64,000 bases of DNA, from positions 24,266-88,265 of IMG/VR virus record IMGVR_UViG_3300026549_000062; one strand, given 5' to 3'. The notes below the pieces were generated by a model. The model ran no database searches and was not told the origin of the DNA. It saw only the letters and a program-made list of their open reading frames with translations. This document shows positions 9,445 to 57,074 of this stretch, in pieces. The stretch's first letter is position 1. Each line of letters opens with the position of its first letter. The stretch is from a virus (taxonomy: Duplodnaviria; Caudoviricetes). Position numbers and translations under genes: made by a program.

Positions 9445-9954
9445 TTATTTATGATTCTTATTATTGTTATGATTATTGTAGTTCTTGCTATTATTGTTAT
9501 TCTGTGAAGTAACAGTAGCCTTGATATCAGCTTTGACCTCTGTTTTAACTTCTTCTTTCTTTTCTTCCTTAGCTGGAGCAGTTTCTTCTTTAAGAGCAAC
9601 TTTTACATTATTCTGTTTATTGTTCTTCTTACTGCTCTTACCATAAAAAGAGACCGTATCAACAACTTTACCAGACTGATCTGTAATATTAACATTATTC
9701 TTTGAATAAGACTTAATATTGGTTGCAGCAACAGCACTCTCTGGAACAGTCGAGATACCATTTTCTGTGTTGTAATTATTAAAGTCTAGAGGAACTGTTT
9801 TACCACCAAGAAGAACCTCTTCTACTAGAGCCTTGTTTTCTATGCAGACTTTAATAGCTTCTGAATCTAGAATAACACCAACACAATTACCGGCAAATGG
9901 AATACCATTAATGGAGAACGGGCGATAACATGAAATATTTACCTTCTTAAGCAT
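9445..9954 (-). CDS. Late protein with small N-terminal domain and low-complexity tail; paralog of 54672-55187
   Basis: Shared GN...K..IE...E.L...L..NY..NG pattern; late promoter 9987-9998. Confidence 0.65.
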   Translation of the reverse strand: MLKKVNISCYRPFSINGIPFAGNCVGVILDSEAIKVCIENKALVEEVLLGGKTVPLDFNNYNTENGISTVPESAVAATNIKSYSKNNVNITDQSGKVVDTVSFYGKSSKKNNKQNNVKVALKEETAPAKEEKKEEVKTEVKADIKATVTSQNNNNSKNYNNHNNNKNHK

Positions 9955-37655: not shown

Positions 37656-37809
37656 TTAGTTGACCTCCCCATAAATACTTCACTTACCTTCATGTTTCAG
37701 TTTTTAATTCATTGGTATATTTTGACAAAAGATACTGGGGTAGAGGAATATCCTCTACTCCATATAATTTTGTATAAAATTATAAAATTTGAATTATATA
37801 CTATAATTG

Positions 37810-38111
37810 TGCATAAGAGGAGAAATAAGTTTAGGAGGTGATCTAATGACTTATCTAAACTTTCGTAGCAAAACATTTAAAAAGCCACCGTTTGTTAAAA
37901 GATTAAGGATGAGAAAAGCAAGTCCAACCCTTCCAAAGTGACTACTTATTATAGCCATCCTTATATCTGAATAAAAGCAGTAAATACTCCTGTATCATAT
38001 GCGGTAGTATAACCATTACTGTGATTTGTTACTTGTGATAGATACACTAAGCAGGTATCTATTTCTGAAAAGCTCAAATTGATAGAGTTACTGCTGATCT
38101 CCTCTTATGCA
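37810..38111 (+). ncRNA. Panhandle structured RNA element 1 (contains small ORF)
   Basis: Perfect 14-bp terminal inverted repeat TGCATAAGAGGAGA; 3' motifs CTAAGCAGG and GTTACTGCTGATC shared with element 2. Confidence 0.6.
37846..37941 (+). CDS. 31-aa basic peptide MTYLNFRSKTFKKPPFVKRLRMRKASPTLPK
   Basis: AGGAGGTG RBS held in a hairpin; inside element 1. Confidence 0.5.
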   Translation: MTYLNFRSKTFKKPPFVKRLRMRKASPTLPK

Positions 38112-38139
38112 TTATTTTTCTGTTATACTGATAATAAAA

Positions 38140-39861
38140 TTAGAATACTGGATCTTTTAGTTTATTTTTATCATCAGGAAGAACAAGGGTTAGATTATAA
38201 AGAGATTGTATAGCTTCCTTAGAAGCATTCATGCTATTCTCACCACCAAGGGAGATATAATGTTTCTTAGAGTTAATCTCTTTTAACATTTCATCATTTG
38301 CCTCTATAGAGAATATACCTTTAGATGATACTGTATCACCATCGAAGTCACCACCAATAGAATCTAGGCGAACGTTATTTGGTAGTGCTACATCAACAAA
38401 CTTGTTTGTAGTATTTTTATTGATATCCTGTATACGAATCTTTGGGTATTCTCTATAAAAAGTATTGTTTACTATCATAGGTTCTGTATCTATTGTAGAT
38501 ACAACTTTTATTTTAGCAGGGAACTGGTTCCAGTATGTATCTACAGGGAAACGTGTTATAAGAACTGCTTTATCCTTAGTGATTTCTATAGCAGCCATGT
38601 AAATTAGATCACACCAAGTAAGAGGGCGTTCTTTAATATAGAAATTTAAACCATCTGTAGTCATAGAAGAACCAGTTTTTGTTTTCTCTATTATAGCTTC
38701 ATCTTCTACATTATATCCTTTAAATATAAGATAAGGTTTAGCTCCTTTAGGCATTCTTATATTTTCTTCTATAGGAGCTTCTATAGCAACAAAACGGTTA
38801 CTCATACCATGCATGAATCTATCTAATTCTTTCTTTATTCTATCATCAGAATATACTTCTCTCCAGTCCTTAATATGAACTGTATGGGTTTTCTTATTCT
38901 TAGGATCTACTGCTAATACGTCATCTGTATCAGTCATATTATTTTCAAACCATTTACGAATATGATATAGCATATAAGGATAGAAATTAGCACATAGAGC
39001 TGCTATAGGAAGCCCAACAGAATCCAGATCTACATCAATATCTGATAATGATTCTTTGCGAAGATTTTGTGTACAGATAACTAGTCTTGCACCCCAGTCG
39101 AATGATTTCTTCATTCCTGAACGTCTAATAAGACCAAGTTTTCTAGATAGACCAGTAGCTGGAGATTCTACACCGTATCTATCTCTACCAAATGCAAGAA
39201 AGTCATATACGGCTACTATAGAATCTTGTATTCTTCCTCTTAAGGAACCTGAAAGAGATAGACCATAATCATCTGATTCTTTCAATGCATTACAATCTCT
39301 TATAATAGCATTATACATTTCATTTATTTCACCTACAGTAACCTTACCAGGTTTATCTGTAGTAACGTCTCTGTATCCAGCTGGTATTACAAGAAAATTA
39401 TCTATAAATAGTTTCTCTCTATATTTTTCTAAGAATGTAACCTTTACATTTCTCTTATCAGAATCTGTTTTAGGAATTTTTAGATCTTTGATAATTTTTC
39501 TGAGATACTTAATACCAGTTTCTCCATTTGGGTCTTGTTCTAACTTACCAGTTTCTTTATTGACTTTAAAGTTGTACATTTCATAAGCACAGAGCTTTAC
39601 ATTCTTATCTAATCTGCACCATATCTTGTATCCTAATGGATGCATGAATGTTTCCCCAGCAAGATGTATATATCCAAATATAGAAGTTCTATCATCTTTA
39701 GTAATGCCAAAAATTTCATTAGAAAGAAGGCCACCAGGAGCTGGCATATTTTTACTACTAAAGAATACAGGGTCTGTTATCTCTTTTACATCATTTACTT
39801 TTATAAAACCATCAACATCAAGAGGTTTTAACTCAAGATGCTTATTTTGTGTTTTAGCCAC
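38140..39861 (-). CDS. rpoC: Multisubunit RNA polymerase beta' N-terminal half with catalytic loop; probably virion RNAP
   Basis: PGGLLSNEIFG, FGYIHL, VIPAGYRD, KKSFDWGARLVI, ITRFP, GGDFDGD; GTG start after GGAGG; late-type promoter 39889-39900. Confidence 0.9.
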   Translation of the reverse strand: MAKTQNKHLELKPLDVDGFIKVNDVKEITDPVFFSSKNMPAPGGLLSNEIFGITKDDRTSIFGYIHLAGETFMHPLGYKIWCRLDKNVKLCAYEMYNFKVNKETGKLEQDPNGETGIKYLRKIIKDLKIPKTDSDKRNVKVTFLEKYREKLFIDNFLVIPAGYRDVTTDKPGKVTVGEINEMYNAIIRDCNALKESDDYGLSLSGSLRGRIQDSIVAVYDFLAFGRDRYGVESPATGLSRKLGLIRRSGMKKSFDWGARLVICTQNLRKESLSDIDVDLDSVGLPIAALCANFYPYMLYHIRKWFENNMTDTDDVLAVDPKNKKTHTVHIKDWREVYSDDRIKKELDRFMHGMSNRFVAIEAPIEENIRMPKGAKPYLIFKGYNVEDEAIIEKTKTGSSMTTDGLNFYIKERPLTWCDLIYMAAIEITKDKAVLITRFPVDTYWNQFPAKIKVVSTIDTEPMIVNNTFYREYPKIRIQDINKNTTNKFVDVALPNNVRLDSIGGDFDGDTVSSKGIFSIEANDEMLKEINSKKHYISLGGENSMNASKEAIQSLYNLTLVLPDDKNKLKDPVF

Positions 39862-39978
39862 ATTAATACCTCCAATACATGAAGTCATTATGGAAATGTC
39901 TCGAACACAAAAAATACGGTAAAGGAAAAAATGAGGCAGGTTTTACCCTGCCCCATTTCTCATGTGCTTTGCCGATCC

Positions 39979-40164
39979 TCAGTGGATGTATTCCAGGATG
40001 CGGGTCGGATGGCAGCCGTCCACTTTGACAACGCCGTAGTAGACCACATGGTGATCCACGAGAAGAGACTTCAGTGCCGCGATCGCCTCTTCTTCACGAT
40101 CATAGAAATTGTTGGTTCTGACGTTTTCGTCTTTGTCAACGATGACGATGAGATATCTGGACAT
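39979..40164 (-). CDS. Small early protein, GC-richer codon usage
   Basis: RBS GAGGAGG; variant early promoter 40230-40242; conserved leader. Confidence 0.7.
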   Translation of the reverse strand: MSRYLIVIVDKDENVRTNNFYDREEEAIAALKSLLVDHHVVYYGVVKVDGCHPTRILEYIH

Positions 40165-40307
40165 GATGTTTCCTCCTCTGAACTTGTATTCGAATAGTCT
40201 TACGTATACTATACTGCTATTCTCACCACTATATTACGTCAATGAAAAAATCGACTTTTACACAAATAAACATGGTATACCCAAATTGGGTATACCATGC
40301 ATGTATG

Positions 40308-40625
40308 TTAAACTTCCACTAGAGTAAAATCAAGCACATTAGAGTTCCTATTTATATTAATCTCATAAAGAGGCTTAAACGCTCCTGGTACTATTTGTTT
40401 ATCCATATTTAGTTCTGCATTTTTAGCAATTTCCTCTGTAGATATCGTAACTGAGAATATTGGCCTAACAATACTCCTACTAATCTTAATATCCAATATA
40501 TCTTTATCCAGGAACATTCCATTCAATATATTAAACATTGTTACCTCTTCAGAGAAGTAGTTTGTTTTAGATAATACGTTATCTTGATCAGAGGATATTT
40601 TGTTATAAAAATCTATTAGATTCAC
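40308..40625 (-). CDS. Hypothetical protein
   Basis: GTG start after GGAGG. Confidence 0.7.
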   Translation of the reverse strand: MNLIDFYNKISSDQDNVLSKTNYFSEEVTMFNILNGMFLDKDILDIKISRSIVRPIFSVTISTEEIAKNAELNMDKQIVPGAFKPLYEININRNSNVLDFTLVEV

Positions 40626-49601: not shown

Positions 49602-50709
49602 TTCATTCTATATGAGAGACGATTCAGAAGAAAGAATAATATACTCTACTTTGGTAAAATTTACTTCACTAGATAGAATTTTTAAGTATACTTATCCATA
49701 CAATGATAGAAATTTCCACTTTGGAAGAATAAATCTATTTATTGATTTGACTTCTATGGTTAGACCACTATATATGAGAAGCGATATCATTGATATAGAA
49801 GGTGTATTGTCTGCTATAGCAAACAATATAATCAACTATCGTCACTATTTCAATAAGTTCAATATAGTAAGTACTCTATTTGTTATCTTCTCTACTAATA
49901 ACTCTATTAACAATATTAGATATCTTGGGGAATACAATAGCAAAGAAATTGAAGCTAGAACAAGGCATGAAGTAGATGATACTTTATTTAATATCATAAA
50001 TCTACTAAAATCTCTTATTCAATACTTCCCTGGAGTATATCTTAAAGAAGGAACTGTAGAACCATCTGTAATTGCATATCATTATATGAAGAATTGTTGT
50101 ATGAATACTCCTGAAGGGATGAACGTTCCTAATGTATTTATTACATCTTCTCAATATGCAGCACAGATTCCTAGAGTTATAAATAACAATGTTCTTCATT
50201 CTATTATTAAAAGCAGGCATTTAGTTTCTAAAGATCCATATGTATATGAAGATAATAGTTATATAGTAACTCCAGATAGACCATTGGATATTTATCTAGA
50301 GCATAGCAAGAATTCTTCTAATAGTTCTGGAATACTAAACAATGATAAGAATTATGTAGGATTGTTTATGATATTAAATGGATTGAAATCTAGAGGAGTT
50401 AAGAGTATACTTGATAGATATAAATCCGTCACAGTTATGAATTATATGCTACAAAACTATCTAGATATAACTCCCGATAATATTTATAATTCTATTGTAG
50501 ATACATTTGGATCTGCTATAGTAGATAAAGCAGAAATCGAATCTAGATATTGTGCATTAGATATAGAATACCAAGATAAATTGTATAGTCAAATGCCAGA
50601 ATCTCTAGAAACTGGTTTCTTAAAAGACTTGTATAATTTTGATGAATTAAATAATGTAATTCAAAAGATGTTTCCAGCTGATAAGCATATCAATATAGAA
50701 TATTTGTAA
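49585..50709 (+). CDS. T4 RNase H/FEN-like 5' nuclease fold, apparently degenerate
   Basis: LFIDL, EPSVIA (vs EADDVIA), ITSSQY..Q (vs I.S.DKD..Q), NGLKSRGVKSI (vs GD.SDNIPG). Confidence 0.45.
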   Translation: MKSHFDSFYMRDDSEERIIYSTLVKFTSLDRIFKYTYPYNDRNFHFGRINLFIDLTSMVRPLYMRSDIIDIEGVLSAIANNIINYRHYFNKFNIVSTLFVIFSTNNSINNIRYLGEYNSKEIEARTRHEVDDTLFNIINLLKSLIQYFPGVYLKEGTVEPSVIAYHYMKNCCMNTPEGMNVPNVFITSSQYAAQIPRVINNNVLHSIIKSRHLVSKDPYVYEDNSYIVTPDRPLDIYLEHSKNSSNSSGILNNDKNYVGLFMILNGLKSRGVKSILDRYKSVTVMNYMLQNYLDITPDNIYNSIVDTFGSAIVDKAEIESRYCALDIEYQDKLYSQMPESLETGFLKDLYNFDELNNVIQKMFPADKHINIEYL

Positions 50710-56707: not shown

Positions 56708-56998
56708 GCAATATAAGATGAGGATCAGCAGTAACATATAATATGCTAATAGATGTATACATCCTGCTTAGCGTGCATACTATAAGGAATTCGGAATTTA
56801 GCTTATGCTAATTTTTTGTTTCGATAAGTATATCTTACACCGTTTTTAGTAAGCCATTTATCAAGGATCTGGGAATTGGAGATCCGTACAGATCCTAAAT
56901 ATTCAGGCTTATCTCTATAGATAGGATTCTTACCGTTTACGTTATGGTAAACCATAAGACATTACCTCCTTTCTATGCATTTCCTCATCTAATATTGC
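56708..56998 (-). ncRNA. Panhandle structured RNA element 2 (contains small ORF)
   Basis: 16/17-bp terminal inverted repeat GCAATA(T/A)TAGATGAGGA-type; same 3' motifs as element 1. Confidence 0.6.
56803..56955 (-). CDS. 50-aa basic peptide MVYHNVNGKNPIYRDKPEYLGSVRISNSQILDKWLTKNGVRYTYRNKKLA
   Basis: AAGGAGGT RBS 8 nt upstream; inside element 2. Confidence 0.55.
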   Translation of the reverse strand: MVYHNVNGKNPIYRDKPEYLGSVRISNSQILDKWLTKNGVRYTYRNKKLA

Positions 56999-57074
56999 AC
57001 AACTATAGTATGTAAATAAAATGAGTAAAAATTACACATAAAAAGGATGGGCTACACCATATGGTGTAGCCTTT

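Follow-up and report, generated by a model that had tools for sequence, protein, structure and literature searches.

Small early-gene cassettes with complementary transcript ends in an uncultured AR9-like jumbo phage

Early transcripts of jumbo phages are the product of an injected polymerase and must survive the host RNases from the first minute. The stretch of DNA analysed here (the window, 64,000 nt, i.e. bases 24266-88265 of an 88-kb IMG/VR record) contains a 484-nt spacer in which an early-promoter motif is followed by a unit of 302 nt whose two ends are perfectly complementary over 14 nt. This locus, called E1 below, raises the question of what such a unit produces: a messenger with paired ends, a sense/antisense pair of RNAs, a substrate for processing, an RNA without coding function or, in the case of a mobile DNA element, no RNA of its own.

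The 88-kb record represents about one third of a jumbo-phage genome and has a GC content of about 30%. Directly to the right of the E1 unit, a split piece of the RNA-polymerase β′ subunit is encoded on the minus strand (38140-39888). This piece shows about 30% identity to its counterparts in Listeria phage LPJP1, in Bacillus phages Goe21 and BpSp and in Staphylococcus jumbo phages, and the phage was therefore assigned to the AR9/PBS1-like group, in which early genes are transcribed by the virion RNA polymerase and late genes by the non-virion RNA polymerase. Strains near-identical to it are present in pig and other animal-gut metagenomes, and the source of the locus is an uncultured AR9-like jumbo phage of the animal gut. 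The AR9 early consensus places an AT-rich block ahead of (6N)-G+1, and late promoters of that phage conform to AACA-(6N)-TA/G (PMC5312081).

The surroundings of E1 show several peculiarities of their own. In one sister-strain contig (L047:520-2249), the gene caller cuts the 582-aa β′ piece into two ORFs of 324 and 209 aa; this split could reflect an assembly error as well as a genuine frameshift or stop codon. In the interval that separates the polymerase gene from the following one, positions 39924-40464 of the window are hypervariable, with about 120 differences per about 540 nt relative to strain L033, from which the flanks differ by only about 1%. This stretch has the look of an accessory gene acquired horizontally or undergoing recombination, and includes a GC-rich ORF (39979-40164, minus strand; about 50% GC, 61 aa) equipped with a strong terminator and a ribosome-binding site of its own. 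An ENA contig of 955 nt (L034) carries a 285-aa ORF combining a reverse-transcriptase domain (PF00078) with the last ~110 residues of the 493-aa protein encoded next to E1; this fusion was set aside as a probable assembly chimera, its junction being located at a short shared peptide. Further into the window, the two 28-nt arms of an inverted repeat (49973-50000 and 50365-50392; 79% complementary, with a perfect 15-nt AT-rich core) are found 364 nt apart within a 374-aa ORF.

On the plus strand of E1, the early-promoter motif of the virion RNA polymerase type occupies 37793-37805 and the predicted start site is the GTG at 37808-37810, 0-2 nt from the first base of the terminal helix P1. The 5′ arm of P1 (37810-37823) is purine-rich and Shine-Dalgarno-like, the 3′ arm (38098-38111) pyrimidine-rich and anti-Shine-Dalgarno-like, and their duplex has a predicted energy of −23.4 kcal/mol and a pairing probability of 0.96. 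In the minimum-free-energy fold of the 302-nt unit, this terminal helix is closed. A local hairpin predicted at 37826-37863 encloses both the ribosome-binding site AGGAGG (37833-37838), predicted to be paired, and the start codon (37846-37848) of a 31-codon ORF (37846-37941). Downstream are hairpin A (38038-38045/38055-38062; 8-bp stem and 9-nt loop), hairpin B (38071-38075/38085-38089; 5 bp including one G.U pair), the conserved box ACUGCUGAUC (38090-38099), the 3′ arm and a U-rich tail (38112-38126). On the minus strand, a late-promoter-type motif AACA-N6-TA (38113-38124) is directed into the unit, with a predicted antisense start at 38113, 2 nt outside the arm. Upstream of the early promoter, the terminator scan revealed a GC-rich, terminator-like hairpin of 12 bp, detected on both strands (37736-37762), which could serve as an end point for antisense or late transcripts crossing E1. 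The early motif, the 14-nt inverted repeat, the hairpin around the ribosome-binding site, the 3′ hairpins and the box described in an earlier note on this DNA are all present and had been placed to within 1-2 nt; its picture of an end-paired, promoter-proximal unit is in agreement with the fold and with the predicted start.

The same note had mentioned a second element. This one corresponds to E2 and, with a third copy, E3, brings the number of paralogous cassettes in the 88-kb record to three, so that the family has at least three members. E2 (56708-56999, minus strand, 292 nt) contains hairpins A and B, the CUGCUG box and a 50-aa ORF (P0020; 56803-56955, minus strand) behind an early promoter (57004-57016, minus strand). 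E3 (L094:1288-1590), 6.2 kb before the window, contains a 40-codon ORF and a U-rich tail; its ends form 15 base pairs without a mismatch, and its 11-bp hairpin has the loop of E1. All three share the early promoter, the terminal helix, a strong ribosome-binding site, an ORF of 40-59 codons, the loop hairpin and the CUGCUG sequence of the box, which lies 1-2 nt before the 3′ arm, or directly before it in E3. A hairpin terminator precedes each promoter, at ~30 nt in E1, ~33 nt in E2 and ~28 nt in E3. Between E1 and E2, the 5′ block (promoter to first codons) is 73% identical and the 3′ block (hairpin A to 3′ arm) 71% identical, and the middle is unrelated. The terminal helix comprises 14 bp in E1, 17 bp with one internal mismatch in E2 and 15 bp in E3; the arm sequences are unrelated among the copies and the stabilities nearly equal (−23.4, −22.3 and −23.1 kcal/mol, with pairing probabilities of 0.84-0.96). 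Fold z-scores were −4.8 for the sense strand of E1 and −7.3 for E2.

Hairpin A combines three different stems with one loop, GCUAAGCAG in all three cassettes, in which UAAGCAG is unchanged among the paralogues. When its stems were aligned (alignment A7), 91.7% of the cells were paired, versus 12-68% with the partner slid, and three pairs had changed on both sides. The covariation score of 0.507, obtained from three independent paralogues only and with E2 slightly out of register in A7, was reached in 0 of 500 shuffles, which gave 0.234. The terminal helix and this first 3′ hairpin both covary between the three copies, and of the two 3′ hairpins originally proposed, hairpin A is a feature of the whole family; hairpin B covaries between E1 and E2, where one compensatory T-A to C-G change also distinguishes strains of E2, and is absent from E3. 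Fixed G.U pairs were found in hairpin A of E2 and E3 and in hairpin B of E1 and E2, and an A-to-G change at 37821 in the P1 allele of two sister strains (L033 and L047) is compatible with pairing, as G.U, in the sense RNA alone. Since these pairs would be C.A mismatches on the other strand, they point to an RNA structure on the promoter strand and constitute evidence against a DNA feature or an antisense-strand fold. Pairs are weakened in some strain alleles: L039 has A.C in P1, and L037 has both A.C and C.A in hairpin B. The loop of hairpin A (AGCAG) could furthermore pair with the box (CUGCU) over 5 bp, both segments being nearly invariant; such a pairing would be stacked on P1. Among three allelic changes at these positions, two keep a wobble pair and one breaks the pair.

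The significance of promoter and repeat was evaluated against chance. The genome early consensus, TTACATACTATA-N3-[GA]TG, gave 57 matches at ≤2 mismatches versus 24 expected; the E1 motif belongs to this recurrent set, one position off the consensus, and the E2 motif matches it in full. One promoter position is C or T depending on the strain (ACTAT versus ATTAT) at both E1 (window 37801) and E3 (17786 of genome G000), and the T form resembles the AR9 early consensus; the deviation of E1 from the consensus weighs against this promoter, as changes of this kind are reported to affect the AR9 virion RNA polymerase (PMC5312081). Perfect 14-nt inverted repeats with a spacing of 150-500 nt occur four times in the 88-kb record versus 0.7 expected. 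A single one is weak evidence by itself, and that of E1 gains its meaning from its position and from its recurrence in three paralogues. Among 240 promoter-like sites drawn from this phage and three relatives, E1 and E2 rank second and third for pairing of the 5′ end with downstream sequence, at −26.0 and −23.5 kcal/mol in a distribution with a mean of −13.2 and an sd of 3.4. Other early transcripts of the phage and its relatives begin with local 5′ hairpins, so that hiding the 5′ end looks like a general habit of the group. Such a hairpin is located right at the predicted start at position 9642 of G000 and at window 32421 (minus strand), among others, and in the relative G001 it is seen in two tandem paralogous early cassettes (51082 and 51492).

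From this anatomy we infer, with a probability of about 0.55 and by analogy with known bacterial messengers, that E1 is a structured early mRNA cassette in which end-pairing shields the message from host RNases. Transcription by the virion RNA polymerase would begin 0-2 nt ahead of the 5′ arm and yield an mRNA of ~300 nt with a strong ribosome-binding site and, in its intact forms, a 40-59-codon ORF. The purine-rich 5′ end of this mRNA would pair with the pyrimidine-rich 3′-UTR segment ~280 nt downstream, forming a helix of 14-17 bp (about −22 to −23 kcal/mol) adjoined by hairpin A and the CUGCUG box. In low-GC Gram-positive hosts, mRNA decay proceeds from the 5′ end (RNase J1) or through RNase Y cleavage in leaders. 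By hiding the 5′ end and the 3′-UTR from both 5′-end-dependent and endonucleolytic decay, the long-range helix should stabilise and delimit the short early message. In E1 and E3, which are antisense within late gene clusters, late transcription across the cassette might later remove it. Protection of the ends is favoured because the geometry of the hbs mRNA of B. subtilis is reproduced, with a helix that begins at the first transcribed bases. The analysis is computational, concerns one uncultured lineage and starts from an E1 copy whose gene is broken; within this scope, the three cassettes offer a compact, testable model of how jumbo-phage early messages may be stabilised or timed, and an example of small accessory genes packaged with a regulatory RNA architecture and inserted into conserved late operons.

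The alternative that survives best is the early/late sense-antisense switch initially suggested for this locus, in which the late promoter would fire back into the unit, the antisense RNA would pair with the early mRNA and, with degradation of this duplex, production of the early peptide would cease. Because of the terminal repeat, both RNAs would have near-identical 5′ ends, and such a layer could be added to end protection, with which it is compatible. The 493-aa gene has its own late-type promoter AACA-N6-TA (37685-37696, minus strand, 29 nt upstream of the gene), found at the same place in four relatives (L005-L007 and L009), and the motif at 38113-38124 is therefore not needed by this gene. 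The motif AACA-N6-T[AG] lies on the opposite strand just outside the 3′ arm, at a distance of 2 nt in E1 and 0 nt in E3, within a 12-nt block of which 11 positions are identical in E1 and E3 even though the arms are unrelated; this block is, however, also a U-tract on the sense strand. In both copies, which are antisense to their late clusters, the hairpin terminator located ~30 nt past the early promoter could be the end point of an antisense RNA of ~370 nt, and AR9 provides a precedent with seven late promoters that drive antisense transcription (PMC5312081). Against this, 129 such motifs occur in 88 kb, i.e. ~0.7 expected per 484-nt spacer. Where the motif stands upstream of a gene, AACA is commonly preceded by A and TA by G, and neither base is present at the E1 and E3 sites. 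At the same place E2, which is co-oriented with its neighbours, has AACT, and in alleles L047-L049 a 1-nt insertion alters the spacing of the motif. Of the convergent late promoter, what stands is a homologous site beside E3; by count the motif is at chance level, and it is absent beside E2. A functional antisense layer in E1 and E3 is accordingly possible, with slightly less than even odds, and the same odds apply to the switch. We consider as doubtful the more elaborate proposal of a module with an early and a late promoter at the ends of a ~300-bp inverted-repeat unit, whose sense and antisense RNAs would both start at an arm and both close a panhandle, and which would have spread as a cassette into late operons. 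If true, such a module would time a burst of a small host-directed peptide and then erase its message.

Returning to the end-paired mRNA, the helix itself could be used in another way, either as an RNase III stalk through which the unit is excised or as a translational fold-back maintained until processing, as in the fbi of hok or in icaR. In length, the helix would suffice as a double-stranded RNA substrate. Behind the 3′ arm of E2 come two more small ORFs, and since no promoter separates them from the arm, the E2 helix lies inside a longer transcript, where processing fits as well as end protection; E1 and E3, by contrast, seem monocistronic, with a U-tract right after the arm. The Shine-Dalgarno-like and anti-Shine-Dalgarno-like character of the arms, together with this internal helix, makes RNase III processing or translational gating a real alternative. 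The true ribosome-binding site of E1 is also predicted to be paired, and icaR offers a precedent (PMC3868564). Yet the partner of the 3′ arm is a 5′-terminal decoy and not the functional ribosome-binding site, whose accessibility varies widely from copy to copy (probability of being unpaired 0.05 in E1, 0.29 and 0.54 in the others). We regard these uses of the helix as unlikely.

Whether the cassettes carry a gene at all depends on the ORF. The 31-codon ORF of the window proved to be a truncated allele: a 1-base deletion in the A-run 37893-37896 (−1 frameshift) interrupts a gene that is intact over 59 codons in sister strains (P0019, matching 37846-38024), and in the original frame the window contains TGA at 37968 and TAA at 38010 ahead of the original stop (38022-38024). 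The small basic ORF noticed at first sight is therefore present as a frameshifted allele and not as an intact gene. Among sister contigs, E1 alleles of 95, 59, 41 and 31 codons were found. The 41-codon allele contains three stop codons, and in the 95-codon allele (P0023) the TGA at codon 60 is changed to TTA and 1 nt is inserted after the arm. The 59-codon form appears ancestral by parsimony over two strain clades. The 95-aa reading, according to which the 3′ block would be coding, was rejected as the ancestral state: the TGA at codon 60 is ancestral by parsimony, and in E2 and E3 the ORF ends ahead of the 3′ block. Broken E1 ORFs are present in the window genome and in L050; in the window, the frameshift and the two stops have inactivated the gene and left the RNA architecture intact. 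Compared with strain L033, E1 shows 13 changes in 332 nt, versus 0.7-0.9% in the flanking genes, and evolves 4-5 times faster than they do. Selection on E1 is relaxed or diversifying by this measure, which is what an accessory early gene would be expected to show. Because of the fast evolution and the broken ORF, this particular copy may be decaying, and its structure may no longer be relevant.

The variation in ORF length bears on a further possibility, that the cassette is an RNA-only element in which the ORF is incidental and the hairpin-A loop and CUGCUG box form the product, a protein-binding or target-pairing RNA. Between near-identical strains, the RNA motifs persist when the ORFs change in length, not only in E1 but also in E3, where a frameshift polymorphism gives 40 or 45 aa, and the peptides belong to no known fold or family. 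Pfam, PHROGs and the ESM Atlas gave nothing usable, and a peptide profile run against 1.8 billion representative proteins, IMG/VR and JGI metagenomes recovered only orthologues of the same lineage. The AlphaFold model of the E2 peptide is a three-stranded β-sheet (pLDDT 74) without any informative structural neighbour in Foldseek. All copies nevertheless possess a strong ribosome-binding site at the correct spacing. The 50-codon ORF of E2 is open in 10 of 10 sister contigs, with changes between strains that amount to four synonymous codons (including CGG to AGA) versus six replacements, and the three peptides, all basic and hydrophilic, share the N-terminal motif M-x-Y-[HL]-N-[FV]-x-G-[KR], written with different codons. 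The motif kept through different codons and the synonymous changes of E2 indicate that the peptide is under selection. An RNA-only element is thus quite improbable, and E1 is a small protein-coding early mRNA or a pseudogene of one.

The family was then considered in related phages. In four of five relatives whose β′ protein is 62-66% identical, the E1 gap measures 3-70 nt. In the fifth (L005:7690-8009), the same gap is occupied by an antisense unit without relation to E1, composed of an early-promoter motif and tiny ORFs together with a bidirectional terminator, so that this junction has been colonised repeatedly. The E3 junction is ~110-130 nt long in two of three relatives versus 517 nt here, and the E2 junction belongs to a variable region that is filled differently in each phage. 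By this comparison, the cassettes are insertions relative to related phages. All six E1-bearing contigs contain the complete E1, and no precise excision at the repeat ends was seen among them. Three dispersed copies, whose junctions in relatives are short or contain other sequence, could also suggest a DNA-level miniature transposon (MITE) with terminal inverted repeats as transposase sites, a reading that was rejected as very improbable, since the arms differ in all three copies although transposase sites would be shared, no target-site duplication flanks any of them, the homology runs past the arms by ~45 nt upstream and ~20 nt downstream, and the G.U pairs point to RNA.

The spacer had no blastn match among 50,697 phage records. 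Rfam returned no match at the gathering score over the whole window and none at E up to 1 at the E1, E2 and E3 loci; at E up to 10, two sub-threshold matches around E1 were centred upstream of it or over its 5′ end. The initial impression that no named RNA family is involved is borne out at both gathering and permissive thresholds. An exact two-motif pattern scan of IMG/VR produced 21 matches, all of them chance occurrences in coding sequence, and the box pattern matched only coding sequence in five related records. In three complete related genomes (G001, G004 and G005), scans for promoter plus panhandle, loop plus box and loop in hairpin revealed no family member, and only unrelated early genes with local 5′ hairpins were encountered. 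A covariance model of the 3′ module (R1), which had been the search advised for relatives, recovered only the training copies over 974 kb, the best other matches (E 0.12 and 0.18) being in coding sequence. In the searched sets, no relatives of the cassette were found outside one phage lineage.

To our knowledge, few bacterial mRNAs (hbs, icaR, hok) have been described in which the 5′- and 3′-UTRs pair over a long range, and we know of no description of it in jumbo-phage early transcripts. [quoted passage not shown] Like hbs, E1-E3 are short small-protein mRNAs with a strong ribosome-binding site and a long 5′/3′ pairing, fully complementary over 14 nt and of −19 kcal/mol in hbs versus 14-17 bp and −22 to −23 kcal/mol here. 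With at least 14 nt of complementarity and, in E1 and E3, a U-rich tract after the arm, they fit the hbs-type class, which is a mechanistic class with no sequence homology to them. Unlike hbs, their pairing involves the first transcribed bases, they are phage-encoded products of a virion polymerase, they contain an additional conserved hairpin loop and box, and they form a family of paralogous cassettes. In S. aureus icaR, an anti-Shine-Dalgarno-like motif of the 3′-UTR pairs with the purine-rich 5′-UTR, a possible RNase III substrate (PMC3868564); the target in icaR is the functional ribosome-binding site, whereas in E1-E3 it is a decoy upstream of the real one.

With mRNAs of the hok/Sok type, the cassettes have in common the end-to-end pairing of a 300-400-nt small-peptide mRNA and a possible antisense RNA, and this 5′-3′ fold-back is what stands of the likeness to type I toxin-antitoxin systems drawn in the earlier note. 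Beyond this pairing, the peptides are hydrophilic and not hydrophobic membrane-active toxins, and the gene is dispensable in nature, as it is broken in some strains. The late-type motif that could drive an antisense antitoxin RNA is present beside E1 and E3 and absent beside E2, and no dedicated antitoxin RNA would thus be common to all copies. Membership of the type I toxin-antitoxin class is not supported. As mobile-looking units, the cassettes rather recall the PeSLs of T4-type phages, in which a stem-loop and an early promoter accompany small non-essential early genes that are scattered in variable junctions and vary from one close relative to another (Arbiol et al. 2010, PMC2839356). E1-E3 likewise associate a stem-loop and an early promoter with small accessory ORFs in variable junctions; PeSLs, however, have σ70 promoters and local terminator hairpins, whereas E1-E3 have a jumbo-phage virion-polymerase promoter and a long-range 5′-3′ helix. 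The cassette family is real, conserved and previously uncatalogued, and represents a variant of the known class of long-range 5′/3′-UTR interactions.
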